DNA of 64,000 bases from an uncultured Acidobacteriota bacterium (GCA_963836075.1 CAWIIB010000001.1:1024001-1088000), one strand, 5' to 3'; positions 1-41,006 are shown, numbered from the stretch's first letter. Notes: generated by a model not told the origin, from the sequence alone. A program made the numbers and translations.

Positions 1-2666
1 TCCGGCCCTTCGCGCCGCGGCAGCTGCTGTCCGCCCTGCCGGAATCGGTAAAATCAATCGCCGTCCTCGACCGGGCCAAGGAGCCGGGGTCCTCTGGCGA
101 AGCGCTCTACACCGACCTGCTCACCGCCCTGGCCGAAGGCCGTACCGAAGGCTACTCCCAGTTCGACAAGGATCCCACGATCATCGGCGGACGCTACGGT
201 CTCTCCTCCAAGGAGTTCGATCCGGCCATGGTCAAGGCGATCTACGACGAGTTGAAGAATGACTCGCCGAAGAACCACTTCACCGTGGGCATCACCGATG
301 ATGTCTCCAACTCTTCGCTGACCGTGGACCACAGCTTCGACACCGAACCGGACAAAGTGACCCGCGGCGTCTTCTTCGGTCTCGGCTCCGACGGCACGGT
401 GGGGGCAAACAAGAACTCGATCAAGATCATCGGCGAGGAAACGGACAATTACGCCCAGGGCTATTTTGTCTACGACTCGAAGAAGGCCGGCGCGGTGACC
501 GTTTCCCACCTCCGCTTCGGCCCGGACCCGATCCGCTCGATCTACCTGATCAAAAAGGCCAACTTCGTCGCCTGCCACACGGAGGTGTTTCTCGAACGCT
601 ACAACATGCTGGCCTACGCCCAGCCGGGCGCGGTCTTCCTGCTCAACTCGCAGTCGGGGCCGGAGGAGGTGTGGGACACCCTGCCCATGGAGGACCAGCA
701 GTCGATCATCGACAAGAAGCTGAAGTTCTACACCATCGACGCCTACCAGGTGGCCCGGGAGACCGGCATGGGGGTGCGGATCAACACCATCATGCAGACC
801 TGCTTCTTCGCCATCTCCGGCGTGCTGCCCCGTGACGAGGCCATTGCCCAGATCAAGAAAGCGATCAAGAAGACCTACGGCAACAAGGGTGAGGAAATCG
901 TCAAACTCAATTTCAACGCCGTGGACCAGACCCTGGCCCACCTGCACCAGGTGAAGGTGCCCGGGGCGGTGACCTCCACCAAGACCCGGCCGGCACCCGT
1001 TTCCGACGAGGCGCCCGAGTTCGTGCAGAACGTCACCGCCGAGATCATTGCCGGCCGCGGCGACGACCTGCCGGTGAGCGCCTTCCCCGTGGACGGCACC
1101 TGGCCCGTCTCCACCACCCAGTGGGAGAAGCGGAACATCGCCCTGGAGATTCCGGTCTGGGAGTCGGACATCTGCATCCAGTGCAACAAGTGCGCCATGG
1201 TCTGCCCCCATGCCGCCATCCGGCCCAAGGTCTACGACCCGAAGTATCTCGACGGCGCGCCGGCGACATTCAAGGCCGTGGACTACAAGGGCCGTGAATT
1301 CCCGGGGACCAAGTACACCCTGCAGGTGGCCCCCGAGGACTGCACCGGCTGCGAACTCTGCGTCAGGGTCTGTCCGGCCAAGGACAAGAAGGACCCCGAA
1401 CGCCTGGCGATCAACATGGCTGCGCAGCCGCCTCTGCGGGAGAGCGAGCGTGAGAACTACAAGTTCTTCCTCGACCTGCCCGACCCGGACCGCACCAAGG
1501 TCAAGACCGACACCAAGGGGACCCAGTTCTTCCGGCCCCTCTTCGAGTATTCCGGGGCCTGCTCCGGCTGCGGCGAGACACCGTATGTCAAGCTGCTGAC
1601 CCAGCTCTTTGGCGACCGGGCGATCATCGGCAATGCCACCGGCTGCTCCTCGATCTACGGCGGCAACCTGCCCACTACCCCCTACACGGTGAACGCCGAC
1701 GGCCGCGGCCCGGCCTGGAACAACTCCCTGTTTGAAGACACGGCGGAGTTCACCTACGGGTTCCGGCTGGCCGTGGATCAGAACCGGGTGGTGGCCGAGA
1801 ACCTGCTCAAGGGCCTCGGACCCAAGATCGGTCAGATTCTGGTGGATGAGATTCTCACCGCTGACCAGACGAGCGAGTTGACCATCGCCGAACAGCGTTC
1901 GCGGATCGCGGCCCTCATCGACCAGCTGAAATCGTTCGACGACCCCGAAGCCCGGCAGCTCTCCCAGCTGTCTGAATACCTGGTGCGCAAGTCGATCTGG
2001 GGCGTGGGCGGTGACGGCTGGGCCTACGACATCGGCTACGGTGGACTGGACCACGTGCTGGCCAGCAATCGCGACATGAACCTTCTGGTGCTGGACACCG
2101 AGGTGTATTCCAATACCGGCGGCCAGGCCTCCAAGGCCACGCCCATCGGGGCGATGGCCAAGTTTGCCATGGGCGGCAAAGCCATCGCCAAGAAGGACCT
2201 GGGCATGATGGCCATGAGTTACGGCTACGTCTACGTGGCCCAGGTGGCCATGGGGGCCCGGGACGCCCAGACGGTGAAAGCATTCCTCGAGGCCGAATCC
2301 TACGAGGGGCCGTCACTGATCATCGCCTATTCCCACTGCATCGCCCACGGCTTCAACCTGGCCGACGGACTGGAGCAGCAGAAGCTGGCGGTGAACAGCG
2401 GCTACTGGCCGCTCTACCGCTTCGACCCGCGGCGCACCATCAAGGGTGAAAACCCGCTGCAGCTGGACTCCAAGGCGCCGTCGGTGGATTTCCAGTCTTA
2501 CGCGCTCAACGAGACCCGCTACCGGATGCTGCAGAAGATCAACCCCGAGCGGGCGCGGATGCTGCTGGACCACGCCCAGGGAACCATCAACGCCAAGTTC
2601 CGCAAATACGAGCAGCTGGCCAAAATGAACTTTGGCGACCAGGACGAGGGGGACGGGGAAGCGTAG
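1..2666 (+). CDS. nifJ: Pyruvate:ferredoxin (flavodoxin) oxidoreductase, 5'-truncated by window edge
   Basis: Frame is open from base 3 (RPFAPRQLL...VLDRAKEPG). Motifs GLGSDGTVGANKN, two CxxCxxCxxxCP ferredoxin motifs, GACSGCGETPY and TPP motif GGDGWAYDIG. Confidence 0.97.
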   Translation, partial: RPFAPRQLLSALPESVKSIAVLDRAKEPGSSGEALYTDLLTALAEGRTEGYSQFDKDPTIIGGRYGLSSKEFDPAMVKAIYDELKNDSPKNHFTVGITDDVSNSSLTVDHSFDTEPDKVTRGVFFGLGSDGTVGANKNSIKIIGEETDNYAQGYFVYDSKKAGAVTVSHLRFGPDPIRSIYLIKKANFVACHTEVFLERYNMLAYAQPGAVFLLNSQSGPEEVWDTLPMEDQQSIIDKKLKFYTIDAYQVARETGMGVRINTIMQTCFFAISGVLPRDEAIAQIKKAIKKTYGNKGEEIVKLNFNAVDQTLAHLHQVKVPGAVTSTKTRPAPVSDEAPEFVQNVTAEIIAGRGDDLPVSAFPVDGTWPVSTTQWEKRNIALEIPVWESDICIQCNKCAMVCPHAAIRPKVYDPKYLDGAPATFKAVDYKGREFPGTKYTLQVAPEDCTGCELCVRVCPAKDKKDPERLAINMAAQPPLRESERENYKFFLDLPDPDRTKVKTDTKGTQFFRPLFEYSGACSGCGETPYVKLLTQLFGDRAIIGNATGCSSIYGGNLPTTPYTVNADGRGPAWNNSLFEDTAEFTYGFRLAVDQNRVVAENLLKGLGPKIGQILVDEILTADQTSELTIAEQRSRIAALIDQLKSFDDPEARQLSQLSEYLVRKSIWGVGGDGWAYDIGYGGLDHVLASNRDMNLLVLDTEVYSNTGGQASKATPIGAMAKFAMGGKAIAKKDLGMMAMSYGYVYVAQVAMGARDAQTVKAFLEAESYEGPSLIIAYSHCIAHGFNLADGLEQQKLAVNSGYWPLYRFDPRRTIKGENPLQLDSKAPSVDFQSYALNETRYRMLQKINPERARMLLDHAQGTINAKFRKYEQLAKMNFGDQDEGDGEA

Positions 2667-2741: not shown

Positions 2742-3236
2742 TCAGGAAGGGGAGAGCCAAAGGCCGAGGTGGATCAGGGGGACAAGCAGGAGCCGGGACA
2801 GGCGGTGGGAGAGCATACCCAGGCGGCCCAGCCGTCCCGCCAGCGGATTGACCCAGGTCCAGGGACGGCGATGCAGCAGGAGCGTGTGCTCCGGGCCCAG
2901 GATGGCGGTCACCCGGCCGAGCATCATCTCCGAAGGGACCCATGACCAGGCCCGGGAGTTGTCCCCTTTCTGGCAGCAGGGGCGGCTGCCGTCGGCGGCC
3001 GCCCGGGACATCAGCAAGCGGTGAACCACCACCGTCTCGCCCTGGCGCAGGGCAATGATGTCGCCGCAGCGGAGCCGCTCCGGGGAGATCGGCTGAATGG
3101 TGACCCGGTCGCCGGGGGAGGCCACCGGCACCATGCTGCGCCCCTCCAGACGGAGAGTGAACTCCTGCCGGCTGTGCCGCCAGAGGTCCAGCACGGCGGC
3201 GGTCACCGGCAGCCCGGGTGCTCCCTTTTCCCCCAC
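2742..3236 (-). CDS. S24/S26-family (signal peptidase I-like, Ser-His type) peptidase; last gene of RiPP-like operon
   Basis: EGRSMVP (catalytic Ser), GDII, VVHRL (His) and KGDN motifs. Starts 4 nt after the C25 gene stop. Confidence 0.85.
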   Translation of the reverse strand: MGEKGAPGLPVTAAVLDLWRHSRQEFTLRLEGRSMVPVASPGDRVTIQPISPERLRCGDIIALRQGETVVVHRLLMSRAAADGSRPCCQKGDNSRAWSWVPSEMMLGRVTAILGPEHTLLLHRRPWTWVNPLAGRLGRLGMLSHRLSRLLLVPLIHLGLWLSPS

Positions 3237-3240
3237 CTGC

Positions 3241-5985
3241 TCACTCCCACGATTTGAGCCGCGAGGCCGGGTCTCCCAGAAGGGTGAACATGCTGACCAT
3301 CACATCGGTGGCGCCCAGAGCATGCGCGGCCACCTTGGCCTCGGTGACAATGACACCGAGACGGTCCTCCCCTTCATCAAAGATCAACGAGAAGATTTCC
3401 GGGGCCAGGAGATCCTGTTCCCAGGTGTAGCTCAGCCCACTGGGCGAGAAGCATCCGAACCCGCCGCCCAGTTCCGCAGTCGCCAGCTCCTCGGCCAGAC
3501 AATAGTAGAACGGATGCGAGAAATAGCCGTTGAGACAGGTCATGGTGAGCACGAAGGTCAGGGCGTCCTCGTTACTCAGCGACGCCACGTCGGCCGAGCG
3601 GAACATATACTCGCCGGCCCAGCCGGTCACCGACCCGTGGCCGTTGTAGTGGACGATGATCTCACCGATGTTGAAGCCCCGGACAATGTCTTCCGTGGCA
3701 TCGTCCACCACGCCGTACTGGGAGAGATACACCCGGCCAGGCACCATCCCATTGGGCAGCATGGCCAGCAGCGTCTCGTTCAGCGACTCGAAGACCGGCT
3801 CGTCGTCAGCGATAAAGAGGGCACGGGCGGGCACCGCTGCCGTCGATTGCTCGTGGGCCAGCAGCCGGGCCACCATGCGCCCGGCCATATCCAGATCGCT
3901 GGCCGGCAGCCGCCCGATACACATCTCCGGCAGGACATCGTCGCCTTCCACACAGACATACCAGTTGTCGTCCGGCGTCAGCCCCAGTTCGCTCAGTGAA
4001 AGGTGCACCGGCACCCGGCTCTGTTTTCCGGTGCCGAAATAGTCGAGGTAATCGGTGTTGGCATCCCCCAGCAGCAGAACGAACTCCGGGGCCGGGGCCG
4101 GCCACTCCCGGTAGGCATGGCCCAGGAAAGCCTGCAGCGCCGCCGGGTCGGCGATCCCGTGGTTGAAGTCGTCGTAGATATCCTCCAGGGCCACCGACAC
4201 GGCGCGGAGCCCCTGGCCCTGGCGATAGCTGACCAGCGGGTCGGCGGCCGCCAGGAACTCCCGCGGCGTGATCAGGATATAGTCAGCACCGTCACCGCCG
4301 GCCCAGAGCCCCGGCGATGTCCAGCCCTCCACCGATGCCGGGGACCGGAAACGGCCCGACGTCAGAGCCTGGTACCGTGCGGGGCCACCGGCGGTCTCTC
4401 TCCATGCCGCCGTGAACCCGCCTCCGGCCTCGCTGATGCCGACGCCCACCACGCGCTTCACGCTCAGATGGGAACTGATATCAAAGACGGCCACCTCCGG
4501 TTCCGAGAAACCGTGGACAGCAATGACCTGGGGGCCGGCCCCGGCAGTGGTGATCCAGAGCTGGTCGTCCATGGCGCGAAGACGTCTGCGGTAGTCCAGC
4601 TCGATCCAGTTGACGTATATGCTGTCCACCGCCGCCCCGGTGTCACCCGGGCAGTTCACGGTGATGGTATTCAACCCCTGGGCCAACAGATCGGAGGTGA
4701 TGGTCATCTCCTGGACAAAAACGTGGTCACCGTCCCAGAACTGGTCCCCCGCCTCGACCCCGTTGACCCGCACCCGGGTGTGATGGTTGGGATGCGGTGC
4801 CGCTGTGGAACGTCCCCGGCAACACACCCGGAGGGTTCCGTCCCACACTCCGGGAGCGAGGTTGGGAATTTCCAGCTGGTAGTCCATGGACGAGGGCGCG
4901 GTGAGCATGTCCCAGAACCAGTAGTCCTCCTCCGGCGCCCCCGGTGCCGCCTCCCACATCCGGTGGTTTTCCTCCACGTGCACGGTTTCAGTGGTGGAGG
5001 TGACCAGTCTGCCGCCGCCGGCGAGCGAACCATTCACCACATCCATCCGCTTACCCGGAGGGCCGTTCCAGTAGAGCCAGTAAACGTTGGTCCCGGTGAA
5101 GCTGCTCTCCATAGCCTGGCCGTAGAAAATGAGGCTCCCCTCGGGCCATGGCACGTCCTTTTCCGGGCCGGCCACCAGAACCGGCACTTCCCTTCCCCGG
5201 TTGAACAGTTTCAACGTGGCCCGGTCAATTGCATCCACCTCGCCGTGGCTCAAACCCGTGGAGAGCAGCGCTGCCACATAGTCAATGGCATGGAGGCCGT
5301 CTTCCTCCACCTCAATGCGCAACGCCCCGTCGCTTCGTGGGCCGGGGAGACCGACCAGTCCACCGGGGGAAGAAATGGCTGAACCCGTGCCTGGCGGAGC
5401 CTCCGGCGACGCCACAGCTCCGACCGCCGGCTGGACAAAGCTGAGCCGGACCAGCAGGCGGGTGGCACAGCGCAGGTTTCCAGCCGATGGATCCCACTGG
5501 AAGGGCTGGAATAGAACCCGGGCCATCCGGGCGCCACGCCGCACAGCCGGTGGGTCCACCGCCACCAGGGCGGCGGGATAGATCCCCGTGCCCCCGATAC
5601 ACCGTTCCGTGCCGCCGCCTTCCGGAGACAGGGTCAGGACGGGGAAGAGCCGCTGCAGCTGGTGGTGCTCGTAGTCCACATCGAGGATCTCGGCACTCAA
5701 TGCGCTTCCCTCGGGGAGCGGAATGGTGCAGCCAAGACGGGGCAATTCGGGCAGGCCGATATCCGAGGTCCTGGCCCAACCGTCCACCACCACCCGCCGG
5801 CATGGTCCGTCCGGCCCCGCGGTCGGCACCAGCCGGTAGGTCGGCAGGTTGAGTTCCAGGGTCATGCCCCGGGAGTCCCGGTCCCGCAGGTCAAGTTCAC
5901 CGGGAAGCGACAGGGCCGGGCCGGGTGTCAGAGCGCCGGCCGGCACCGTGAGCAGAAGCAACAGCAGAGTTAGTCCGTATCTCAT
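3241..5985 (-). CDS. Secreted C25-family (gingipain-like) cysteine peptidase with N-terminal propeptide
   Basis: Signal peptide, propeptide-like GLPELP region, ADYILIT, YDDFNHG, VLLLGD, IGRLP, catalytic YNGHG and MTCLNG, terminal LLGDP. Confidence 0.9.
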   Translation of the reverse strand: MRYGLTLLLLLLTVPAGALTPGPALSLPGELDLRDRDSRGMTLELNLPTYRLVPTAGPDGPCRRVVVDGWARTSDIGLPELPRLGCTIPLPEGSALSAEILDVDYEHHQLQRLFPVLTLSPEGGGTERCIGGTGIYPAALVAVDPPAVRRGARMARVLFQPFQWDPSAGNLRCATRLLVRLSFVQPAVGAVASPEAPPGTGSAISSPGGLVGLPGPRSDGALRIEVEEDGLHAIDYVAALLSTGLSHGEVDAIDRATLKLFNRGREVPVLVAGPEKDVPWPEGSLIFYGQAMESSFTGTNVYWLYWNGPPGKRMDVVNGSLAGGGRLVTSTTETVHVEENHRMWEAAPGAPEEDYWFWDMLTAPSSMDYQLEIPNLAPGVWDGTLRVCCRGRSTAAPHPNHHTRVRVNGVEAGDQFWDGDHVFVQEMTITSDLLAQGLNTITVNCPGDTGAAVDSIYVNWIELDYRRRLRAMDDQLWITTAGAGPQVIAVHGFSEPEVAVFDISSHLSVKRVVGVGISEAGGGFTAAWRETAGGPARYQALTSGRFRSPASVEGWTSPGLWAGGDGADYILITPREFLAAADPLVSYRQGQGLRAVSVALEDIYDDFNHGIADPAALQAFLGHAYREWPAPAPEFVLLLGDANTDYLDYFGTGKQSRVPVHLSLSELGLTPDDNWYVCVEGDDVLPEMCIGRLPASDLDMAGRMVARLLAHEQSTAAVPARALFIADDEPVFESLNETLLAMLPNGMVPGRVYLSQYGVVDDATEDIVRGFNIGEIIVHYNGHGSVTGWAGEYMFRSADVASLSNEDALTFVLTMTCLNGYFSHPFYYCLAEELATAELGGGFGCFSPSGLSYTWEQDLLAPEIFSLIFDEGEDRLGVIVTEAKVAAHALGATDVMVSMFTLLGDPASRLKSWE

Positions 5986-7137
5986 GTGGTCTGTTCTTCC
6001 TCTTCGGGCCGGGTGGCGTCGAGCGCCAGTTGCCTGACCAACGGTTCCTGCTCCTCAAAACGGCCCACCGTCAGCCGGAAGCAGGAGATATCGCCAATAT
6101 GCTCGATGAGCTCCTTCATCCGCATAACGGACCCGGTATCCCTGCCCCGCCCGGATGAATCGACCCGTTGTTTTATTCCGGGCAGCAGGCCGAATGCCGC
6201 CTGGTGGACTGGTATGCTCTCCAGCGCCGGTGAACGTGAGAAATCGGGCCGGGCCGTCTCACCCCTGAACACGTTGAGCAGATGGTCCCGGTGTTCCTCC
6301 AGCAGGTCCGCAAGACGGACTGCCAGCCCTTGCCCCAGCGGGTAGTCCAGCCGGAATTCGGCCACATCGGTGAGCGGTCTGGTCACTTCGATTCCGGGGT
6401 GCAGTCGGACCAGGGCATCGAGCAGCGGCTCCCAGCCCGGCTCCCGGGCCCCGATCACCAGCCGGCCCATGGCCCTGGCTTGCGGCCCCGGATCGAGGAT
6501 GAGCAGCAGGGCCGGCGCTGCCGTTGCACCGCCTGTCGTTTCACCAGCAATGGCCGGCAGAGGGATCTTTCCACCCCTCAGCGCCACGCCATCGCTTACC
6601 GACTCCGCCGGCCCTTCTTCAGGAACCACCCAGAGACTGCGCGGAAAGGGGTGAACCCGGCCGGTCCGGCGGTGGACCGGACATATTTCATCGGAATAGA
6701 GGGTGAACCCCGCTTCGGCCAGGGCCAGGGCCATGGTGGTCTTTCCCGTGCCCGGCGGCCCGGCCAGGATCACCGCCCGGCCATGGCGCACCGCCACTGC
6801 CGCGTGGAGCAGCAGGTGATGGTTCAGGCTGTCAAAAAGTGTCTGGGTGACCCACTGCCAGGCATGGTGGACCGGGGTGGGATGTCCGTCGAGGGACTGT
6901 TCCCCGTGACGGTCAGCGCCGCCCGCGGTGCGCGGCGGCCCGGGAGAAGCTGACCCCCGGCCCCTCCGGCCCGTTGAAGCAAGCGCTGATCCGCAGGTCG
7001 GCGTCAACCCCGGACACAGTGGTGCGGAACGACCCGTAATCCCGGTCAAACAGTTCCAGCAGCTGTTCCGAATCGCTGGACAGGTCCAGGTCCGTTCCGA
7101 GAATGCAGTAGCGTGCCTGGTGCCGGTCCCGGATCAC
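5982..7137 (-). CDS. HprK-related P-loop kinase-like protein (one frame break near 6930-6960)
   Basis: GTG start overlaps the rSAM stop (GTGA). N-part MIRDRHQARYCILGTDLDLSSDS continues in another frame into LLHAAVAVRHGRAVILAGPPGTGKTT...YSDE...PFPR. Confidence 0.75.
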
Positions 7138-8534
7138 GACGCCCCCTTTTCCGCAGCGGCGCCGCGAGCGCTCTCCCGATGCAAAATACCGTCGAACGCT
7201 TCCCGGTAGGCCTCCTGGCGGTAAGGACAGAAGTCGTCCCGCTCCCAGATGCTCCCCCGATGGTCCAGAGCCTGGCCCATACAGCCGGCCTGGCACAGGT
7301 TCCGCCAGTGACAGGCGGCGCACTCGGCGATCTCCCGCCGCCGCCGGCTCAGAGCCGAGCAGGCCCCGGCCATGGCGGGGTGCTCCAGGCTGGCGCGGAG
7401 GCCGTCACGCAAAACGTTTCCCAGACGAAATTCATCGCGCATCAACAGGACGCAGGGATAGGCCGAGCCGTCCACGTCGGCCACCAGGGTCCGGCCCACG
7501 GAACACCAGATGCCATCCGGGGCGATGGCCGGGGGGACTTCCAGCAGGAATCCGCTCAGACCGCAGTTGACGCTCACCGCGCAGCCGCCGCCGCGCTGCG
7601 CCGCGGCCACCTGATGGTAGAACGCCTCTTGATCCTCCACCGTCACCCCGGCGCCGATGCTGGCCCAGTTGCCTGCCGCCCGGCCCCGGCGCCCCAGGGG
7701 CAGGAAGCGGACCTGGGGCACCCCCCGATCCTCGGCCAGCCTGATGATCGCCGACAGCTGGTGCACATTCTGCTTCATGATGGTGGTGGAGAGATTGAGC
7801 TGCTCCCCCAGGCCGGCCCGCTGCAGGAGTTCCACGGCGTGCAAAGCGGCGGCGAAACTCCCCGCAGCCCTGATCCGGTCATGGGTCGCCTCGTCGGCCC
7901 CGTCCAGGCTGACCTGGACCAGCGCACCGCTCTCGGCCAGGAAGGCAGCCCACCGGTCATCGATGAGCGAACCGTTGGTCAGCAGTCGGACGCGCATGCT
8001 CCCCGCGGCATGACTGATCAAATCCTTCACCCGGGGGTGCAGCAGGGGCTCGCCGCCGCTAATGGTCACGCTCCGCGCTCCCCCGGCGGCCGCCTCGTCG
8101 ATCAGCCGGCAAGCCGCCTCGAGGGGCATGTCCAGGGTTTCCCGGTCAGCGGCGTGGTAGCAGTGGACACAGGCATAGTTGCAGCGGTGGGTGATGTGCA
8201 GAAAAAGCGATTCCGCCAGCGGGACACGCCGCGGCGGGTCGAGGGCTGGGGAATCGAGAAAGCCGCGGTGGCGGAGCTCGTCGGCCACCCGGTCCACATC
8301 GCGCCGGGCCTCGTCTCCGCCGAGGCCGTAACGCCCGGCCAGCGCGGCGGCCGCGCCCTCGCGGTCCGCTCCGGCGCCGAGAATCCCGGCAATTTCGCGG
8401 GTGGTGGCGTTTACCACCAGCCAGCGGGGATCACAGCGGTGGAGCATGACCAACCGATCCCGGGAGCCTTCGGGCAAAGGGGTGTCGGGGTAAAAAAACC
8501 AGGAAGGTTCCGGTGCTGGGGAATGTCTGTCCAA
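7134..8534 (-). CDS. Radical SAM/SPASM peptide maturase with N-terminal PqqD-like RRE domain
   Basis: CNYACVHC, SGGEPLL, QVSLDG; SPASM cysteines CSVG...AYPC...CAACHWRNLCQAGC...FC; N-terminal VVNATTREI...LAGRYGL...ARRDV...LRHRGFL is PqqD-like. Confidence 0.93.
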   Translation of the reverse strand: MDRHSPAPEPSWFFYPDTPLPEGSRDRLVMLHRCDPRWLVVNATTREIAGILGAGADREGAAAALAGRYGLGGDEARRDVDRVADELRHRGFLDSPALDPPRRVPLAESLFLHITHRCNYACVHCYHAADRETLDMPLEAACRLIDEAAAGGARSVTISGGEPLLHPRVKDLISHAAGSMRVRLLTNGSLIDDRWAAFLAESGALVQVSLDGADEATHDRIRAAGSFAAALHAVELLQRAGLGEQLNLSTTIMKQNVHQLSAIIRLAEDRGVPQVRFLPLGRRGRAAGNWASIGAGVTVEDQEAFYHQVAAAQRGGGCAVSVNCGLSGFLLEVPPAIAPDGIWCSVGRTLVADVDGSAYPCVLLMRDEFRLGNVLRDGLRASLEHPAMAGACSALSRRRREIAECAACHWRNLCQAGCMGQALDHRGSIWERDDFCPYRQEAYREAFDGILHRESARGAAAEKGAS

Positions 8535-8584
8535 GAGCGATATATCCTGCCCGGGAATTCCATGGACCGCCCCGGCACCACGCC

Positions 8585-8755
8585 CTAGAAGATGGCGCAG
8601 GGTGCGGGGCTGCAGGCATGCGCGGGCCCGGCCTGCTCCAGGATTTCCACGCTGCTGTAACTGGTGATTACCGGTGATTCGTAGCGGATCCGAATTCCGG
8701 AATTTTTCCGGTCGCAGCGGTCCGGCTTCCGCGGTTCAGTTCTCTCCTCAATCAT
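8585..8755 (-). CDS. Putative RiPP precursor peptide (56 aa; predicted core CSPAPCAIF)
   Basis: GGGAG-rich RBS before ATG; leader motif YESPVI; lies directly upstream of the RRE-rSAM gene. Confidence 0.82.
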   Translation of the reverse strand: MIEERTEPRKPDRCDRKNSGIRIRYESPVITSYSSVEILEQAGPAHACSPAPCAIF

Positions 8756-8839
8756 CTCCCTCTCCCGGTTACGGCCCCAGGCAGGTGTTGAACCCCTCTC
8801 CACAACATATCTTTTCGGCAGTAATGCGTTTTGACTGAA

Positions 8840-8868
8840 AATTTAACAACAACCCTCCGGGCTGTCAA
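8840..8868 (-). promoter_or_regulatory. Sigma70-like promoter of the RiPP-like operon
   Basis: Minus strand TTGACA-N17-TAAATT about 85 nt upstream of the precursor ATG. Confidence 0.65.
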
Positions 8869-8946: not shown

Positions 8947-9909
8947 CTACTTGCCCATCGCATCGACTTCGCCACAGGTCTTCTTCACGGCGTTGATCGA
9001 GTGCTTCAGGGCCTTCTTCTCTTCCGGGGTCAGCTTGATCTTGATGATCTTCTCCACGCCGTCCTTGCCGAGGATGGCGGGAACGCCGACAAAGAGCCCC
9101 TTGACGCCGTATTCGCCTTCGAGCAGCGCGCAGACCGGGACGATCTTCTTCTTGTCATACATGATCGCCTCGACCATCTCCAGCGCCGACCAGGCCGGGC
9201 TGACAAAGGCCGAACCGGAGCCGAGCAGGCCGACCACCTCGCCGCCGGCCTTGCGGGTCCGGGCTTCGATGGCCTCGAGCTTCTTGGGGCTGACAAACTG
9301 TTCCACCGGCAGGCCGTAGACCCGGCAGGCGCTGCGGATCGGCACCATGGTGTCGCCATGACCGCCAAGCACCACCGCCTCGATGTTTTCCACCGAGACG
9401 CCGGCTGCTTCGGCTACGAAATACTTGTAGCGGCCCGAGTCGAGCACACCGGCCATACCGATGATCTTGTTCTTCGGACAATTCAGCTTCTTGAACAGGC
9501 GGTAGACGATGGCGTCCAGCGGGTTGGCCACGGAGATGACGAAGGCGTTGGGGCAGTACTTCTTGATCCCCGCGGCCACCTTGTCGGTGATCCCCAGGTT
9601 GATCGCCAGCAGCTCTTCGCGGCTGGGGAAGGTGCCGTCGGGCCGCACGGTGCGCGGCACGCCAGCGGTGTTGATCACGAAGTCGGACCCCTCGAGAACC
9701 TCGAAGGTCTGGCTCGCCTGGAAGTTGACGTCACGGCTGATGGTCGGCATCCCCTCGGCGATGTCGAGGCACTTGCCCTTTGCCAGGTTGGGGGGCTTGG
9801 GATCCACCAGGCCAACGTTGCGCGCGAGACCGCGCGAGACGATTTCCGATACCAGGACGCCGCCGATCTGGCCGCCGCCCACGAGTCCGATCTTGTTGAC
9901 CATCGACAT
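8947..9909 (-). CDS. mdh: Malate dehydrogenase (LDH-like type)
   Basis: GGGQIG, TAGVPR...SREELL, ANPLDA, GMAGVLDSGR and VLGGHGDTMVP motifs. Confidence 0.92.
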   Translation of the reverse strand: MSMVNKIGLVGGGQIGGVLVSEIVSRGLARNVGLVDPKPPNLAKGKCLDIAEGMPTISRDVNFQASQTFEVLEGSDFVINTAGVPRTVRPDGTFPSREELLAINLGITDKVAAGIKKYCPNAFVISVANPLDAIVYRLFKKLNCPKNKIIGMAGVLDSGRYKYFVAEAAGVSVENIEAVVLGGHGDTMVPIRSACRVYGLPVEQFVSPKKLEAIEARTRKAGGEVVGLLGSGSAFVSPAWSALEMVEAIMYDKKKIVPVCALLEGEYGVKGLFVGVPAILGKDGVEKIIKIKLTPEEKKALKHSINAVKKTCGEVDAMGK

Positions 9910-34780: not shown

Positions 34781-35041
34781 ATGAAACGCAAGAAACCGGA
34801 AGTGATCACCTTCAAGGTGGATGAATCGCTGCTCGAAGCGATGGAGGACATTCCCAACCGCTCCGAATTCATCCGCCATGCCGTGCAGGCAGCCCTCGAA
34901 CACAGTTGCCCGCTCTGCCGCGGCACCGGGGTGCTGACCCCGGAGCAGCACGACCACTGGAGGGCCTTCTCCGCCAGCCACCAGCTCCGGCGGTGCGAAG
35001 AGTGCCGTGAAATGCACCTGGTGTGCGAGAAGGGAAAGTGA
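34781..35041 (+). CDS. CopG/ribbon-helix-helix regulator with Cys/His-rich C-terminus
   Basis: VITFKVDESL...NRSEFIRHAV RHH pattern; CPLC, CEEC and HLVC motifs. Confidence 0.8.
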   Translation: MKRKKPEVITFKVDESLLEAMEDIPNRSEFIRHAVQAALEHSCPLCRGTGVLTPEQHDHWRAFSASHQLRRCEECREMHLVCEKGK

Positions 35042-35961
35042 TGAACCGTCGCCCTGCCCTGCTGTTCTTTCTCCTGTTCACGGTACTGGCCTTCGGCTGC
35101 TCCGCCCCGAAGGAGACCGGCACGGCCCACAGGCCCCGCCCGGGGATATTCGTCAGCATCCCGCCGCAAAAATTCCTCGTGCAGCGCATCGCCGGAGACC
35201 TGGTCACGGTGGACGTCCTGTTGCCGCCCGGCCAGTCGCCGGCCACCTATGAACCGGCCCCCCGGCAGATGAGCCGGTTGTCGGAGTCGGCGCTCTTCTT
35301 CCGGGTGGGCGTGCCGTTCGAGGAGCGGTTGATGAAGAAAATCACCGACACCATGCCGGACCTGGAGGTGGTGGACACCCGGGAGGGAATCGAACTGCGA
35401 CGGATGGAGGGGGGACACGATCACGGCCACGCCCATCACGGCGATCACACTCATCAGCCCGGCAGCCCGGACCCGCACAGCTGGCTCGATCCGCGGCTGG
35501 CCATGATCCAGGCCCGCACGATGCACGATGCGCTGGTGCGGATCCTGCCCGGCAACGCCGACAGCCTGCGGGACGGGCTGGAGCGGCTGACCGCCGACCT
35601 GCAGGAAACCGACCGCCGGGTGGCACTGACTCTGGAGCCGCTGCGCGGCCGCAGCATCTACGTCTTCCACCCGGCTTACGGGTATCTGGCGGATGCCTAC
35701 GGCCTGACCCAGGTGGCGGTGGAACTGGAGGGCAAGGAGCCCAGCGCCAGGCAACTGGCCGACACCATCACCAGGGCCCGGCAGGACGGCGTACACGCCA
35801 TTTTTTACCAGCCGCAGTTTTCCCGGAGCAGCGTCGAGACGCTGTCCCGGGAAATCGGCGGCAACGCCGTTGAACTGGACCCGCTGGCCGAGGGCTACCT
35901 GGAGAACCTCGAGCGAATGGCGGCGGCCATCAGCGACGCACTGGAGGCGGAGGCGAATTAG
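35041..35961 (+). CDS. znuA: Zinc/manganese ABC transporter substrate-binding lipoprotein
   Basis: Lipobox LAFGC, His-rich loop HDHGHAHHGDHTH, DPHSWLDP, HPAYGY. Confidence 0.88.
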   Translation: MNRRPALLFFLLFTVLAFGCSAPKETGTAHRPRPGIFVSIPPQKFLVQRIAGDLVTVDVLLPPGQSPATYEPAPRQMSRLSESALFFRVGVPFEERLMKKITDTMPDLEVVDTREGIELRRMEGGHDHGHAHHGDHTHQPGSPDPHSWLDPRLAMIQARTMHDALVRILPGNADSLRDGLERLTADLQETDRRVALTLEPLRGRSIYVFHPAYGYLADAYGLTQVAVELEGKEPSARQLADTITRARQDGVHAIFYQPQFSRSSVETLSREIGGNAVELDPLAEGYLENLERMAAAISDALEAEAN

Positions 35962-35963
35962 CG

Positions 35964-36728
35964 ATGCCTGACCCTGACGGCAGCCCGGCCATCAGCGCCC
36001 TGAACCTCACCTTCACCTACGGCGGCCCGCCGGTGCTCGAGGATGCCACCTTCACCATCGAGCGCGGCGATTTCGCTTCCATCGTCGGCCCCAACGGCGG
36101 GGGCAAGACCACCCTGCTCAAACTGATCCTGGGTCTGCTGCACCCCTCGCGGGGCGAGATTCGGGTCAGCAACCGCCCGCCGGCTGACGCCCGCCCGCTC
36201 ATCGGGTATATGCCGCAGCACGTGGACCTCGATCCCAGCTTCCCGATAAACGTGACCGAGATCGTGCTGATGGGCCGCCTGGCGCCGGGCATGGCTCCCG
36301 GCCCCGTCGGCCGCAAGGACCGCCGGCTGGCCGCCGGCATCATCGAAATGCTCGGTCTGGAGGAGGTGCGCCAGAAGCCGCTGGCCGAACTTTCCGGCGG
36401 CCAGCGGCAACGGGTGCTCATCGCCCGGGCTCTGGCCTGCCAGCCGGAGATCCTGCTCCTTGACGAACCCACGGCACATCTCGACCTGCATCTGGAAGAC
36501 GAGTTTCTCGAAATTCTGAAGGACCTGAACCGGCGGATGACGGTGGTGATGGTTTCTCACGACCTGGGGTTCGTGGCCAGCTGCGTCAACCGCTGCGTCT
36601 GCGTCAATCGCCACGTGCACCTGCACCCCACCAGCGCACCGAAGGATGACCTGATCCGCAGCATGTATGGTGACAGCGTCCGCCTGATCCGCCACGATGT
36701 GGATTTCCCGGAGGGCGAAGAACGATGA
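35964..36728 (+). CDS. znuC: Metal ABC transporter ATP-binding protein
   Basis: GPNGGGKTT, LSGGQRQR, LLDEPT and SHDL motifs. Confidence 0.9.
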   Translation: MPDPDGSPAISALNLTFTYGGPPVLEDATFTIERGDFASIVGPNGGGKTTLLKLILGLLHPSRGEIRVSNRPPADARPLIGYMPQHVDLDPSFPINVTEIVLMGRLAPGMAPGPVGRKDRRLAAGIIEMLGLEEVRQKPLAELSGGQRQRVLIARALACQPEILLLDEPTAHLDLHLEDEFLEILKDLNRRMTVVMVSHDLGFVASCVNRCVCVNRHVHLHPTSAPKDDLIRSMYGDSVRLIRHDVDFPEGEER

Positions 36729-37576
36729 GCGAGTTCGTCCAGGCCCTGAGCGAGCACGTCTTCCTGCAGCGGGCGCTGCTGGCCGGCCTGATGATCAGCC
36801 TGGCCTGCGGCATGGTGGGCACCTACGTGGTCTCCCGGAGGATCACCTACATCGCCGCCAGTGTGGCCCACTGCGTACTGGGCGGCATGGGCGCGGCCCG
36901 TTACCTCCAGGTGGTCCACGGCTGGGCCTGGCTGACACCGTTGTATGGCGCCCTGGCCGCCGCGGTGACCGCCGCGGTGATCATCGGCCTGATCAGCCTC
37001 AAGGCCCGGGAACGGGAAGACACCGTGATCGGTGCACTCTGGGCCATCGGCATGGCCGCCGGCGTGCTGTTCATATCCCGTACCCCCGGATACAACGAAG
37101 ACCTGATGAGCTACCTCTTCGGCAACATCCTGGTGATCTCCTCGCTTGATCTCTGGCTCATCGCCCTGCTGGACCTGGTGGTGGCGGCGATCACCCTGCT
37201 GTTCTACCGCCAGTTGCAGGCGGTCTGCTTCGACGAGGAATTTTCCCGTCTCCGCGGCCTGCGGGTGGAATTCCACTACCTGCTGCTGCTCTGTCTCACC
37301 GCCCTCACCGTGGTGCTGCTGGTCACCGTGGTGGGCATCGTGATGGTCATCGCCCTGCTCACCCTGCCGGCGGCCATTGCCGGATACTTCTCTCGTTCCC
37401 TGTGGCAGATGATGGTGCTGGCCACCGCAGTTTGCGCCCTGCTCACCAGTTCGGGACTGGCCCTCAGCTACGGCCCGAACCTCCCGGCCGGCGCCACCAT
37501 CATCATTCTCGCCGGCGCCGCCTACCTGCTGGTGGCTGGGGGACGGGCGCTGCTGCGCAGGTCCGCATCGGGCTAG
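36725..37576 (+). CDS. znuB: Metal ABC transporter permease
   Basis: ABC-3 permease motifs (SYLFGNIL, FDEEF, VGIVMVIALLTLP). Confidence 0.9.
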   Translation: MSEFVQALSEHVFLQRALLAGLMISLACGMVGTYVVSRRITYIAASVAHCVLGGMGAARYLQVVHGWAWLTPLYGALAAAVTAAVIIGLISLKAREREDTVIGALWAIGMAAGVLFISRTPGYNEDLMSYLFGNILVISSLDLWLIALLDLVVAAITLLFYRQLQAVCFDEEFSRLRGLRVEFHYLLLLCLTALTVVLLVTVVGIVMVIALLTLPAAIAGYFSRSLWQMMVLATAVCALLTSSGLALSYGPNLPAGATIIILAGAAYLLVAGGRALLRRSASG

Positions 37577-37592
37577 CCTCAAAAACCAGGCC

Positions 37593-37618
37593 GGAGCAAT
37601 AATTGACATAATTGCTCC
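37593..37618. promoter_or_regulatory. Inverted repeat enclosing a TTGACA hexamer (operator or hairpin)
   Basis: GGAGCAAT-AATTGACATA-ATTGCTCC. Confidence 0.4.
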
Positions 37619-37859
37619 AAGTTTCGAAATTCTTACGATTTATGTGAAAAATGACTGGAATTTCATCAACTGCTAGTTTATATTGAAGTTCAAGAGTTTT
37701 TTGATAGGGAACCTTCGGATGTTACTGGGGCCGGAGGATCGATTCCCAGCCTGTCGGATCGGGGCGCCAGACCCCGGATCTTGATGTTTTTCCAAACGCC
37801 ATCACCATCACCGGAATCGTCCGGGTTGATGGGTGAGATTTCCGGAAAGGAGTGCTTTA

Positions 37860-38969
37860 ATGCGTTACCGTGGTATGAAGGGTTGGATCTGTTGCTCCGC
37901 CCTCCTCGTTTTCCTTTTCTCCATCGGGCTCATGTTCAGCGCCGGCACCAGCCTGGCCGCTGACAGAGTTGTACTGGGAGAACTCTTCTCCCGCACCTCT
38001 TGACCATACTGCCCATCCGCGGTACGCGGATTTGAAGATCTCGTCGACACCTACGGCACCGACCAGTTCCTCCCCATCACCTGGTATCTGCCCGGCTACA
38101 CCGGCAGTATCCCCGAAGCCGCCACGCGGGCCTCGGCCAGTTTCTACAATGTCACCGGAGCGCCCACGGCATGGTTCGACGGCTGGACCAATTCGGTGGG
38201 AGGCCTGCCCTCAGGCTCCATGTTCTCCTACTACAACCCGATTGTGATCAGCCACCTCGGCTCGGCAAGCCCGTTGGAGATGACCGCCAGCTATACCCAG
38301 ACAGGACTCGACGTGACGCTCAACGTGCATATCGATGTCACCGGCTTTGTCAGCACCACCAGCAACCGGGTACACTTCATCGTCTGCGAGGACGGGGGTC
38401 AGGGCAATGTGAACATGTCCCGCCAGGCCCTGACCTACGAGCCGTTCACCCTCACCTCCCCTGGACAGTCAGTGGACATCCAGCGCACCACCACCCTCTC
38501 AGCCGCCTGGACCGGCCCGATCAACATCATCGTCTTTGTCCAGAGCCACGGTTCGAACTTTGACGTGCTGCAGGCGACCCTGGCCGCCGAGGAGTGGGCG
38601 GGAGACACCGTGGGCGTCACCCTTGGTTGCACCCCCGGTTCCGGCACACTCCCCTTCACTTCCAGCATGTGGCTCCGTCTGGAGAACCTCACCCCCTGGT
38701 CCCGGCGGATCTCGGGCAAGATCAACGCCACCATCGGCAACGGCTCGACGTTTACCAGCTGGAGAGCCGGTTGGACCAACCTCAGTCCCGCTGAAGTCTA
38801 TACATCAAACTGGAACCAGAACTTCCCGGGCCTGGCTTCGCTGGTGGGCGACAACATCTTCACCCTCTACGGCTACGATGTAACACCCGCACCGTATAAC
38901 CAGCCGCCCTATGCCCCGGACGGCGGTTCCGACACCGCGTCCTGCACCATCACGGCGTACGCGCCCTGA
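37860..38969 (+). CDS. Putative selenoprotein: secreted Omp28-like thioredoxin-fold protein with U48-P-Y-C motif (369 aa if read through)
   Basis: AAGGAG RBS, ATG 37860, signal peptide, VVLGELFSRTS-TGA(38001)-PYCP in frame with ORF 38196..38969; later GAPTAWFDG and IIVFVQ. Confidence 0.8.
38015..38031 (+). promoter_or_regulatory. Candidate bacterial SECIS element
   Basis: ATCCGCG-GTA-CGCGGAT perfect hairpin starting 11 nt after the in-frame TGA, with G-starting loop. Confidence 0.7.
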
Positions 38970-38991
38970 TCCTTTCGGCAGGGCAAAGAGC

Positions 38992-39030
38992 AAAGCCCCG
39001 GTCATCGCAACGGTGACCGGGGCTTTTTTT
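38992..39030 (+). terminator. Rho-independent terminator
   Basis: AAAGCCCCGGTCA...TGACCGGGGCTTTTTTT. Confidence 0.9.
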
Positions 39031-39119
39031 ATCTGCTCTTCACGATTCTTCTTTTATTCCTACTCCACTATTTCTCCAAAACCTCATGTGTTGCCGGGCC
39101 GCACATGAGGTTTCGGGAC

Positions 39120-39171
39120 AAAAAAATACCCCCTGGCTCCCCTGTCAAAGACAGGCAGCGGAGGGGGTATT
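39120..39171 (-). terminator. Terminator downstream of the orphan precursor
   Basis: Minus strand ATACCCCCT...CCTGTC-TTT-GACAGG...AGGGGGTAT followed by a T tract. Confidence 0.8.
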
Positions 39172-39202
39172 CATTCGCGAGACTGATCCGCGTCAGACGG
39201 CC

Positions 39203-39472
39203 TCAGCTGCTGTAGGTAATCCAGTTACCGCACATGCCGCTGTAGACGTAGCTGCCGCTGGTGCCGCCGGGGCCGAAGCCGATGCCGGCGCTGCCGCTGG
39301 CCGACTCGCTACCGCCGAAACCGCCACCGAGGTGACCGGTGAAGGTGTCATAGGGAGCACCCGTGTGCCAGGATCCCGGAGGGGGATCAGTGGTCTTGCC
39401 ACAGGCCAAAGCCGAGGTCTCGAACGACTTTTCACTCTTGATCACAGGCTTGCTGTACAGTGCCTTCTTCAT
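39203..39472 (-). CDS. Orphan putative RiPP precursor (89 aa) with Gly/Ser-rich core
   Basis: Leader MKKALYSKPVIKSEKSFETSALA then CGKTT...; standalone gene with own promoters and terminator. Confidence 0.75.
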   Translation of the reverse strand: MKKALYSKPVIKSEKSFETSALACGKTTDPPPGSWHTGAPYDTFTGHLGGGFGGSESASGSAGIGFGPGGTSGSYVYSGMCGNWITYSS

Positions 39473-39544
39473 GAAACCCATCCCTTCTTGAGGTTGATAA
39501 TTTTGCCACTCCCTCACAGACCCCTAATTCGGAATGGCTGCGAA

Positions 39545-39573
39545 ACTATACCTTCTCACCATCAACGAGTCAA
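39545..39573 (-). promoter_or_regulatory. Sigma70-like promoter P1 of the orphan precursor
   Basis: TTGACT-N17-TATAGT on the minus strand. Confidence 0.65.
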
Positions 39574-39667
39574 GACCAAATCCACATGTCGCATCCCGCA
39601 GCAAATCCGCCGATTCAGAGCAACGAAAACAGAACGCAAACCATGTAATCGGGATAACGATGCGAAC

Positions 39668-39696
39668 AATTTACAAGTTTTCCATCCTTAAGTCAA
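39668..39696 (-). promoter_or_regulatory. Sigma70-like promoter P2 of the orphan precursor
   Basis: TTGACT-N17-TAAATT on the minus strand. Confidence 0.55.
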
Positions 39697-39743
39697 TACG
39701 GTTTTCAAGATCCGGTTCATCGGCTCCCGCACCCTCCCGCTCC

Positions 39744-41006
39744 TCACCTCAATTCTCCGGGTTCGAAGATCCGAACAGTACCGAAGAGACCGTCATATCC
39801 CGCAGATACGGCAAGCGCTCCCCGACGAACCCGGCTCACACCCTCGGCCAGCAGCGGACCACCGGCTGCGGCCAGTTCTTCCACCGGCACGTCCATCAGG
39901 ATCTGCAGTTCCGGACCGAGGCGGGCCAGCAGCCCATCGTAAATCCTGGCCACCTTTCTGGAGCCCGCCCCGACCCCTTTGATCTCTCCAATGATCTGGG
40001 ACAGGGAGACCAGCCGGTGAAAAGGCAGGGCCCGCGGGGAACGCGATCCTTCGTCGCGGTCAGCCAGCACTTCCACCCGGTGGGCCACCCCCACGGTGAC
40101 CGCCCTTCCGCAGGCGGGGCAGAGGCCGCCGGCCGCCAGGGTCTGGACCGGGGTCAAGCGTTGCCCGCAGGCCCGGTGGCCGTCCAGATGATATTTGCCC
40201 TCCTCGGGAAAGAACTCCACCGTTCCCTTGCACAACGCCGGGTCTGCACTGCGCAGCGCGGCGAACAGGTTGTCGTAGCCCGGCTCCACCGCCAGCAGGG
40301 TAGCCTCCCGCCCGATCCGCGATGGTGAGTGCGCATCGGAATTGGAGACCAGGGTGTACTCATCAAGCGTGGAGACGCGCCAGTTCATCGGCGGGTCGGA
40401 GGAGAGCCCGGTCTCCAGGGCGAAAATGTGTCCGGACAAATCTCCGTAGCAGTCGTTGATGGCATCAAAGCCGGACCGCGAACCCAGAACCGAAAACCAG
40501 GGCGTCCAGATGTGGGCCGGAATGAGAACAGCCCGCGGGGAACACTCCAGGGCCATGGCCAGCAAATCGCGGCTGTCCAGTCCCAGGATGGGCCGGCCGT
40601 CGGAGCCAAGGTTTCCCACCTTGCTCAGCAGAGCACTCAGCCGGTCCGCGGCAGGGAGGTCGGGGAGGTACACCAGGTTGTGCACCTTGCGGACCCGGTC
40701 CCCCCGTTTGTAGATGCTGCTGATTTCCACCTGGAGGATGAAGCGCACATCCGAGGCACATGAATCGGGCACCGCATCCTCCCCCTCCAGGGAAGGACCG
40801 CTCCGCAGCCGGAAAAGTCCGTTGCCTTCAGATACCAGTTGCTCCTTCAGTTCGGCTCGCCAGCCGGGGTGGGTGAAATCCCCGGTCCCCAACAGCCCCA
40901 TACCCTTTTTCCGGCCCCAGGCCCACATCCGCTCCAGGTCGAAGTTGCGGCTGGTGGCCCGGGAGTATCTGGAGTGGAGGTGAAGATCAGCGGCAAAAGT
41001 TTTCAA
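39744..41006 (-). CDS. Endonuclease Q-family PHP-domain protein
   Basis: TTG start after AGGAGG; ADLHLHSRYSRATS, GTGDFTHP, PAHIWTPWFS, ETGLSSDP, NSDAHS, GKYHLDGHRAC and CPAC motifs. Confidence 0.85.
   Translation of the reverse strand: MKTFAADLHLHSRYSRATSRNFDLERMWAWGRKKGMGLLGTGDFTHPGWRAELKEQLVSEGNGLFRLRSGPSLEGEDAVPDSCASDVRFILQVEISSIYKRGDRVRKVHNLVYLPDLPAADRLSALLSKVGNLGSDGRPILGLDSRDLLAMALECSPRAVLIPAHIWTPWFSVLGSRSGFDAINDCYGDLSGHIFALETGLSSDPPMNWRVSTLDEYTLVSNSDAHSPSRIGREATLLAVEPGYDNLFAALRSADPALCKGTVEFFPEEGKYHLDGHRACGQRLTPVQTLAAGGLCPACGRAVTVGVAHRVEVLADRDEGSRSPRALPFHRLVSLSQIIGEIKGVGAGSRKVARIYDGLLARLGPELQILMDVPVEELAAAGGPLLAEGVSRVRRGALAVSAGYDGLFGTVRIFEPGELR

Follow-up and report, generated by a model that had tools for sequence, protein, structure and literature searches.

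Several described families of peptides that are made on ribosomes and then modified post-translationally (RiPPs) use a small precursor, a PqqD-type chaperone, and a radical S-adenosylmethionine (SAM) enzyme with a SPASM domain. The PqqA/PqqD/PqqE, mycofactocin, and sactipeptide (SkfA/SkfB) systems are of this kind, and their leader motif has the form aromatic-x-(K)-P-x-hydrophobic. The SynChlorMet (ScmC/ScmD/ScmE/ScmF) and HprK-related kinase A systems combine an HprK/PEPCK-like P-loop protein with a PqqD relative and radical SAM/SPASM proteins. Prochlorosins are produced by one lanthipeptide synthetase (LanM) from many dispersed precursor genes with a common leader and hypervariable cores. 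Phosphorylated and phosphoglycosylated lasso peptides (paeninodin and pseudomycoidin) have an HPr-kinase-like protein and a nucleotidyltransferase in the RiPP cluster, and precursors in lasso clusters with an HPr-kinase-like protein are reported to share little beyond a C-terminal Ser (PMC8498205). Here, we analyzed a gene at positions 39203 to 39472 (minus strand) of a 64,000-nucleotide (nt) stretch of DNA (the window; GCA_963836075.1 CAWIIB010000001.1:1024001-1088000) from an uncultured Acidobacteriota bacterium. It encodes a peptide of 89 amino acids (aa) that we judge, with a probability of roughly 0.6, to be the precursor of a radical SAM/SPASM peptide family that depends on a RiPP recognition element (RRE) and is matured in trans, most likely by a cassette on contig C9 of the same genome. 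Membership in a peptide family, genomic linkage of that family to the cassette, purifying selection, and expression signals are what the data show.

The C9 cassette compares with the described systems as follows. The top NCBIfam matches of its radical SAM enzyme include the MftC and StsB models, all below cut-off, and its nearest solved relatives are PqqE (4.7e-15) and SkfB (7e-13), both peptide modifying. Unlike the Pqq, mycofactocin, and sactipeptide systems, the cassette adds a kinase-like protein and an S24/S26 peptidase, and its core is 66 aa long and conserved. ScmC is the best match of the kinase-like protein at a related locus (L053; 3e-12), with ScmD, ScmE, and ScmF among the matches. 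All scores lie under the TIGR04248-04251 and TIGR04352/04353 cut-offs (ScmC, 46 versus 125 bits), which places the proteins outside the SynChlorMet and HprK-related kinase A families; unlike SynChlorMet, the cassette has a single radical SAM enzyme instead of two and includes a signal-peptidase-like protease. A literature search on the name SynChlorMet found no paper on that cassette. The likeness to lasso systems lies in a C-terminal Ser in 80 of 85 precursors and a PF14907 nucleotidyltransferase in 20 of the 31 complete short-core loci described below. Unlike lasso systems, the maturase beside the peptides is a radical SAM/SPASM enzyme; no search aimed at a lasso cyclase or B-protein was made. 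The C9 cassette itself has no adjoining nucleotidyltransferase, and the sole homolog in the genome is at C1:1292827 (E of 2e-11). As with prochlorosins, there is one maturation locus and many scattered precursor genes with a common leader (15 loci, 10 intact), but the enzyme is a radical SAM protein instead of LanM, and the cores are conserved (65% mean identity) rather than hypervariable. No paper on this cassette was found in a literature search that covered some papers by title or the start of the abstract and PMC11002830 in part, with the supplementary tables of RiPP surveys outside its scope. As far as the literature and profile searches reach, the cassette system is undescribed.

The peptide family and the C9 cassette

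The gene and the two parts of its product, whose complete sequence from the ATG at 39470-39472 is MKKALYSKPVIKSEKSFETSALACGKTTDPPPGSWHTGAPYDTFTGHLGGGFGGSESASGSAGIGFGPGGTSGSYVYSGMCGNWITYSS, are as follows.
39203..39472, minus strand: precursor gene (P0001), 89 aa plus stop, ATG at 39470-39472; protein MKKALYSKPVIKS...NWITYSS
39404..39472, minus strand: leader, residues 1-23, MKKALYSKPVIKSEKSFETSALA, ending in A-L-A (AxA type) before Cys24; recognized by the leader hidden Markov model (HMM)
39206..39403, minus strand: core, residues 24-89 (CGK...TFTGH...GFGPGGTS...C.NW.T.SS); described from alignment and composition

The initial annotation had proposed a standalone 89-aa gene whose long core is rich in Gly, Ser, and Thr and contains two Cys. 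Both points held: the gene has a Shine-Dalgarno site, and its core from Cys24 is 66 aa long with 18 Gly, 10 Ser, 7 Thr, and 2 Cys. This short open reading frame (ORF), made up of an N-terminal leader followed by a C-terminal core, is a genuine gene on which purifying selection acts. At two loci from other genomes (L017 and L020) the ortholog is flanked by the same two neighbors, and the nonsynonymous and synonymous divergences (dN/dS) of the window gene are 0.027/0.224 versus the L017 ortholog and 0.089/0.324 versus the L020 ortholog (ratios of 0.12 to 0.27). Related loci number 15 in the genome (6.23 Mb in 10 contigs), of which 10 are intact (start, leader, and core in frame), 4 have no intact leader, and 1 is a C-terminal fragment; a GGAGG-like Shine-Dalgarno site precedes the start in 10 of 10 paralogs examined. 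The first copy in the C9 cluster differs from the window peptide at only 1 of 65 aligned core residues, the other differences lying in the leader, and yet dS is 0.36, so the core has been kept by selection and not by recent copying. A scan of the genome with the motif Y..P.[IL].{8,20}A.AC returned 11 of 119,427 six-frame ORFs, versus 0 to 4 in five shuffles.

Across 121 aligned family members, Cys24, His36, His47, and Cys81 are invariant, and the core ends in a C-terminal Ser. A large protein collection contains 177 homologs of ~88 aa, none with a Pfam domain and all named, if at all, "hypothetical protein"; in the ESM Atlas the peptide falls in its own unnamed cluster (0.93), with the remaining unnamed clusters below 0.9. 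Pfam and NCBIfam gave no model for the peptide at an E value of ≤10, and NCBIfam gave none for seven relatives with short or mid-length cores at ≤0.01. In a sample of 301 genomes of the phylum, only the three that belong to this genus have full-length copies (16, 11, and 10 matches; 15, 11, and 9 at a stricter threshold), and a scan with one genome per species found full-length relatives in only a few metagenome-assembled genomes. One dispersed copy (C8:137051-137314) has a deviant C terminus (...NWVGGGT) and lies beside, and divergent from, a lone HprK-related protein (L016:8078-8938, minus strand; HprK_rel_A 7e-7, below cut-off).

Three sister precursors stand with the cassette enzymes at C9:2116714-2125255, at about the maximum distance from the window gene that the genome allows. 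The features of this region are listed below in coordinates internal to locus L009 (C9:2112000-2130000), together with one from a second locus (L011).
L009:8667-8933, ~9186-9446, and 9517-9783, minus strand: three tandem paralogs of the window gene, directly behind the cassette and co-oriented with it
L009:10348-10896, minus strand: S24/S26 signal-peptidase-like protein (sigpep_I_arch 2.5e-9, below cut-off)
L009:10913-12148, minus strand: radical SAM/SPASM enzyme (Radical_SAM 6e-22, SPASM 4e-12)
L009:12179-12454, minus strand: PqqD, 91 aa (1e-21)
L009:12444-13256, minus strand: P-loop (HprK/PEPCK-like) protein, 270 aa (fold and P-loop)
L009:4715-8391, plus strand: two B12-binding radical SAM genes, converging on the tandem copies
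L011:9855-12134, plus strand: third B12-binding radical SAM gene, following two further peptide copies

Because the three sister precursors are beside the cassette and the window gene is distant, the window copy would be processed in trans. An HMM built on the leaders of 85 ORFs from other genomes scored the window leader at 50.6 bits and the three cassette-adjacent copies at 51.6 to 53.7 bits. The cassette peptidase of another locus matches Peptidase_S24. By its modeled fold and P-loop, the 270-aa protein belongs to the HprK/PEPCK P-loop kinase superfamily: the model has a predicted local distance difference test score (pLDDT) of 91.5, Foldseek matched it to PEPCK (E of 1.5e-8, TMq of ~0.5) and HprK/P (E of 3e-5), and residues G140, S142, G145, K146, and T148 of the GxSGxGKS/T P-loop are invariant in 25 sequences. 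Elsewhere, B12 radical SAM genes accompany 3 of the 18 long- or mid-core loci of other genomes (L023, L024, and L028), and none stands beside the 58 short-core loci; the two sites in the genome studied here are both beside long-core copies.

The leader on other cores and in other phyla

The one-genome-per-species scan returned 79 loci. Taken alone, residues 1 to 33 match small ORFs of Terriglobales, of other Acidobacteriota, and of Armatimonadota, Methylomirabilota, Rokubacteria, Binataceae, Fermentibacteria, Eisenbacteria, and Elusimicrobia. The leader-bearing ORFs have in common the block YxKPxhxxExhFETxAL(A/S)CGK, behind which stand different cores: an 18-aa core (CGKxxxTQxxCxxxxKxS), a 21-aa core with three Cys, and a core of ~60 aa with a (T/S)GH motif. 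P9, E18, A(-3), L(-2), and C(+1) do not vary in the leaders of the 85 ORFs from other genomes (85 of 85 for every position). With A(-3) and a residue at -1 that is A in 58, S in 25, and G in 2, the leader end follows the small-x-small rule of type I signal peptidases (S26). Five of these ORFs lack the C-terminal Ser, one being cut by a contig end, three truncated, and one ending in Ala.

Two other explanations of the N terminus were rejected by reading the sequence. A lipoprotein reading of "LAC" conflicts with a Glu at -6 and the missing hydrophobic region. A Sec or lipoprotein signal conflicts with seven charged residues and no hydrophobic run in residues 1 to 23; no predictor was used.

We classed 58 loci as short core, although three of them (L025, L029, and L030) are in fact long-family fragments. 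Of the 58, 36 have a C9 enzyme ortholog (E of <1e-40), 40 have PqqD, 33 the kinase-like protein, 33 the peptidase, and 32 all four; many of the loci that lack the enzymes lie on short contigs or belong to the Armatimonadota type. Because the same N-terminal 26 residues stand on unrelated 18-aa cores inside four-gene cassettes at 32 loci, we take them to be a leader-peptide signature. The initial annotation had suggested checking homologs and their neighbors, and this check linked the homologs to PqqD and radical SAM genes, both for the three C9 paralogs and for the 32 loci with all four genes. Together with the C9 cassette and the 15 loci in the genome, it supports the proposal of a dispersed system in which an RRE and a radical SAM enzyme act in trans on many precursors, for which "another RRE system" had been left as an option.

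A maximum-likelihood tree of 42 enzymes split the long- and mid-core enzymes, including that of C9, from 32 short-core enzymes (support, 100/97), and the enzyme therefore follows the core type. A profile of the short-core peptides matched 1,005 clusters at an E value of ≤1e-3 and 329 at ≤1e-10 among 1.84 billion representatives, and none of the clusters is named. No Pfam or NCBIfam model covers the short-core peptides, and the cassette enzymes reach no curated cut-off; the nearest models for the cassette proteins are those of SynChlorMet proteins, HprK-related kinase A, lasso and GeoRSP PqqD, MftC, and AhbD. Besides the PF14907 nucleotidyltransferase, present in 20 of the 31 complete loci (L030 being excluded from them), a protein of ~629 aa without a Pfam match, with an N-terminal hydrophobic stretch seen by eye, occurs in 22 of the same 31 loci. 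Examples of such additional genes are at L061:14992-16176 (minus strand) and L069:1506-3395 (plus strand).

The Armatimonadota-type variant has the same leader and the 21-aa three-Cys core CGKC..GP..Q..C.....S. Among its 14 loci (L035-L038, L042-L045, L051, L052, L054, L077, L085, and L089), PqqD is present at only 5 and an ortholog of the C9 enzyme at 0, and the variant may use another maturase.

Proposed maturation and alternative explanations

The following route is inferred throughout, from leader binding and the individual reactions to the point of cleavage and the role of the product. The stand-alone PqqD would bind leader residues 1 to 23, and the radical SAM/SPASM enzyme would then introduce one or more cross-links into the core, probably through the two invariant Cys. 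The kinase-like protein of PEPCK/HprK fold may, by analogy, modify the peptide, most plausibly at the invariant C-terminal Ser, and B12-dependent radical SAM enzymes probably methylate the long core in this genus. Finally, the S24/S26 signal-peptidase-like protease would cleave after A-L-A and leave an N-terminal Cys. The conserved core, its invariant two Cys and two His, and about ten copies with strong expression signals point towards an abundant, sequence-specific product and not a hypervariable antibiotic.

Several observations weigh against assigning the peptide to the C9 cassette. The 10 kb to each side of the window gene contain no peptide-modifying enzyme, so the tie of this copy to the cassette is one of family membership, and in other genomes the enzyme is nearby in only 4 of the 18 long- or mid-core loci. 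In the 10 intact paralogs, mean pairwise identity is 65% for the core versus 63% for the leader; RiPP precursor families do not usually have a core conserved like its leader, and a small functional protein would also show this pattern. The kinase-like protein stays below every curated NCBIfam cut-off, and serine kinase activity would be by analogy, because the best structural match is PEPCK rather than HprK. A predicted complex of the C9 PqqD with peptide residues 1 to 40 gave weak support for leader binding, with a score of 0.45 versus 0.01 for the best of three controls, a value in the band where most predictions are wrong unless the pairing was already likely. Of 157 solved complexes, 116 reach the mark set for this score, as do 2 of 215 mismatched pairs; only 18 of the solved complexes pass it with a score of ≤0.60, along with both mismatches that pass. 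At least 92% of contacts agree between runs, and partner pLDDT is ≥55; solved PqqD-leader complexes exist, and likeness to them may alone explain the score. The RNA contigs described below come from relatives (90 to 99% alike), with DNA carry-over possible. Finally, the genome encodes a second, orphan enzyme of the same clade, which could be the true or an additional maturase.

That orphan stands alone.
L096:8186-9367 (C1:90186-91367), plus strand: orphan radical SAM/SPASM enzyme; tblastn match at 90218-91324
It might mature the dispersed long-core copies, either by itself or together with the C9 PqqD, and leave only the adjacent copies to the C9 enzyme. We consider this improbable. The orphan is 39% identical to the C9 enzyme (E of 1e-96) and groups in the long/mid-core clade (100/97), and at L031 to L033 (Fermentibacteria and Eisenbacteria) enzymes of this clade stand beside mid-length precursors at loci where PqqD, the kinase-like protein, and the peptidase were not detected. 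The long branch of the orphan (1.73 changes per column), however, makes its placement uncertain; it scores under every curated family cut-off, and neither a precursor nor a PqqD adjoins it, its neighbors, as read from translations, being an enolase, an FtsB-like cell division protein, a tRNA-like stretch, and a sensor kinase. The core conservation bears on another explanation, that of an abundant small Gly-rich protein, unmodified, which binds metal through the two Cys and two His or is structural and whose N terminus is part of the protein or an unusual export tag. Purifying selection, the four residues invariant in 121 sequences, the distance of most copies from any maturase, and a zinc-uptake ZnuABC operon directly upstream of the window copy would all agree with such a protein. 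It does not account for the same 26 residues on unrelated 18-aa cores in the four-gene cassettes of 32 loci or for three copies that abut the C9 cassette in the same orientation. The N terminus, with 7 of 23 residues charged and no hydrophobic stretch, is not a Sec or lipoprotein signal. AlphaFold2, given the 121-sequence alignment, produced no confident fold (pLDDT of 49.3; predicted template modeling score of 0.22), which carries little weight either way. On balance, an unmodified protein is an unlikely explanation.

The initial annotation had named the window's own radical SAM enzyme, some 30 kb away, as a possible maturase. It belongs to an operon at 2742-8803, a paralogous cassette with its own precursor family.
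7134-8534: radical SAM/SPASM enzyme with a fused N-terminal PqqD-like domain
5982-7049: HprK-related protein
3241-5985: C25 peptidase
2742-3236: S24-like peptidase
8585-8755, minus strand: operon precursor (P0002), ending in GPAHA-CSPAPCAIF

Maturation of the window peptide in trans by this enzyme and its HprK-like, C25, and S24-like neighbors is, in our estimation, very unlikely. The two cassettes are alike in make-up, each with a radical SAM/SPASM enzyme, a PqqD domain, an HprK-related protein, and an S24/S26-like peptidase, and a TAAATT -10 hexamer precedes both precursor genes. Each precursor begins with a region that contains Y-x-x-P-V-I-x-S and has a small-x-small pattern before a Cys, and hhalign of the two family profiles puts Y..P.I and A.AC in register (P of 0.0048, at a probability of only 7%; P of 0.042 against the short-core profile). 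The parallel that had been drawn between the two leaders thus stands at the level of a motif and goes no further: BLASTP gave no alignment at an E value of ≤100, the leader HMM, which finds every paralog of the window peptide, left the operon precursor unmatched at the same limit, and the Tyr-to-Cys spacing of the two leader families differs by 5 residues. By BLASTP, leader HMM, and hhalign, the window peptide falls outside the P0002 family. The leader of that family, YxxPxIxTYSSEEILEQxGPAQAC (7 aligned members), occurs in 9 of the 301 genomes of the phylum; only two homologs were present in a set of 5.8 billion proteins, and a six-frame genome search was needed. Against the cassette enzymes of other genomes, the C9 enzyme gives E values of 1e-45 to 1e-240 and the window enzyme only ~1e-8 to 1e-25. 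The cassette of the window enzyme has a precursor family of its own, while the leader studied here travels across phyla with orthologs of the C9 enzyme. The likeness of the leaders, at motif level only, does not count as evidence for acceptance of the window peptide by the window enzyme. What the two families share, an N-terminal Y-x-x-P-x-I-x-S/T motif and an A-x-A-C junction, is a real design principle of two sister systems.

A second, unlinked P0002-type copy with an identical core (CSPAPCAIF) is at C9:1759686-1759919 (plus strand), and the window operon system therefore also has dispersed precursors. In two Bryobacteraceae loci (L073:1038-4796 and L080:3606-7367), a homolog of the window C25 peptidase (E of ~1e-71) is found a few kilobases upstream of a C9-type short-core cassette, which hints that the two sister systems can share a neighborhood; the loci are close relatives and are therefore counted as one observation.

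If maturation by the C9 cassette holds, a widespread peptide-maturation cassette exists that has no name, profile model, or located paper. It would unite radical SAM cross-linking with kinase/nucleotidyltransferase tailoring of a C-terminal Ser, so far described apart, and would serve about ten dispersed genes with long conserved cores, which would blur the border that separates natural-product precursors from small proteins cross-linked after translation. A broader proposal, taken as a whole, is tentative, and we lean against it. In it, the leader would mark a new RiPP class (at least 1,005 clusters; Acidobacteriota, Armatimonadota, Methylomirabilota, Fermentibacteria, and others) whose products would carry a radical SAM/SPASM cross-link and a phosphorylated invariant C-terminal Ser, nucleotidylated or glycosylated in many lineages, and lose their leader to a signal-peptidase-like protease dedicated to that task. 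Within the genus studied here, growth of the 18-aa core would have led to a conserved 66-aa Gly-rich, protein-like core with two Cys and two His that do not vary, amplified to about ten active genes, further methylated by B12 radical SAM enzymes, made in large amounts, and structural or metal binding rather than antibiotic in role.

Expression signals and surroundings of the window gene

Positions 39120 to 39696 contain one small minus-strand transcription unit with the following signals.
39482..39487, minus strand: Shine-Dalgarno-like GAAGGG, 9 nt ahead of the ATG at 39472
39545..39573, minus strand: promoter-like TTGACT-17-TATAGT, 10/12 consensus match, predicted only
39668..39696, minus strand: promoter-like TTGACT-17-TAAATT, 9/12 consensus match, predicted only
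39120..39170, minus strand: intrinsic terminator, a G+C-rich hairpin at ~39126-39170 followed by U7 (39120-39126), from folding

A longer ORF from the first GTG (39203..39517, minus strand) would encode 104 aa, and an earlier in-frame ATG lacks the spacing for a Shine-Dalgarno site. The two promoters proposed initially, one with the TAAATT -10 of the operon, exist as consensus matches: the minus strand has two sigma-70-like sites versus a mean of 0.4 in 50 shuffles, and the operon precursor has TTGACA-17-TAAATT at 8868..8840. In the 230 nt upstream of the 10 paralogs, the strict pattern TTGAC.-16..18-TA...T was found at the window copy only, so a promoter common to the paralogs is not supported. 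The gene also has the terminator of its own that had been predicted, with a folding energy of -38.5 kcal/mol (z of -3.15, equaled by 1 of 200 shuffles) and a position 33 nt past the stop; a simple scan missed it because the stem is long and imperfect, and folding recovered it. Rfam returned four matches over 37500-40000, all far under the gathering score and all on a plus-strand terminator at ~38990-39030, and found no riboswitch in the 5' region of the gene.

Eleven contig pieces from four metatranscriptome runs all fall inside 39164-39558. The flanks at 38900-39163 and 39559-39900 matched no metatranscriptome contig, and such uncovered flanks do not mark transcript ends. The runs were picked for holding the window gene, and strand, starts, ends, and level are not readable from the contigs. 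They give a weak hint that the gene is transcribed in relatives, and the high expression proposed in the initial annotation stays at the level of a hint.

The annotation had also noted no adjacent modifying enzyme, and the 10-kb search agrees. The neighbors are ZnuABC, a 257-aa protein without a family, a TIGR00375 PHP-like protein, a ferredoxin, a phosphoesterase, AhpC, and a transglutaminase-like protein. The ZnuA/ZnuC/ZnuB-type metal uptake operon (35023-37576, plus strand) is directly upstream of the 257-aa protein gene and the peptide gene.

At 37833-38969 (plus strand), the reading frame of the 257-aa neighbor, for which there is no Pfam or NCBIfam match, runs on upstream past one in-frame TGA (38001-38003) to a signal peptide. 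Read-through of this TGA would yield ...GELFSRTS-U-PYCP..., a UxxC redox-type motif, and SelB is encoded in the genome (365.7 bits, over cut-off). The L017 and L020 orthologs, like a paralog near C9:2705000-2707400, keep both the TGA and a hairpin 14 nt downstream. From its sequence, the neighbor with its upstream extension is a candidate secreted selenoprotein family, and homologs of it occur near copies of the peptide in L021, L025, and L028.

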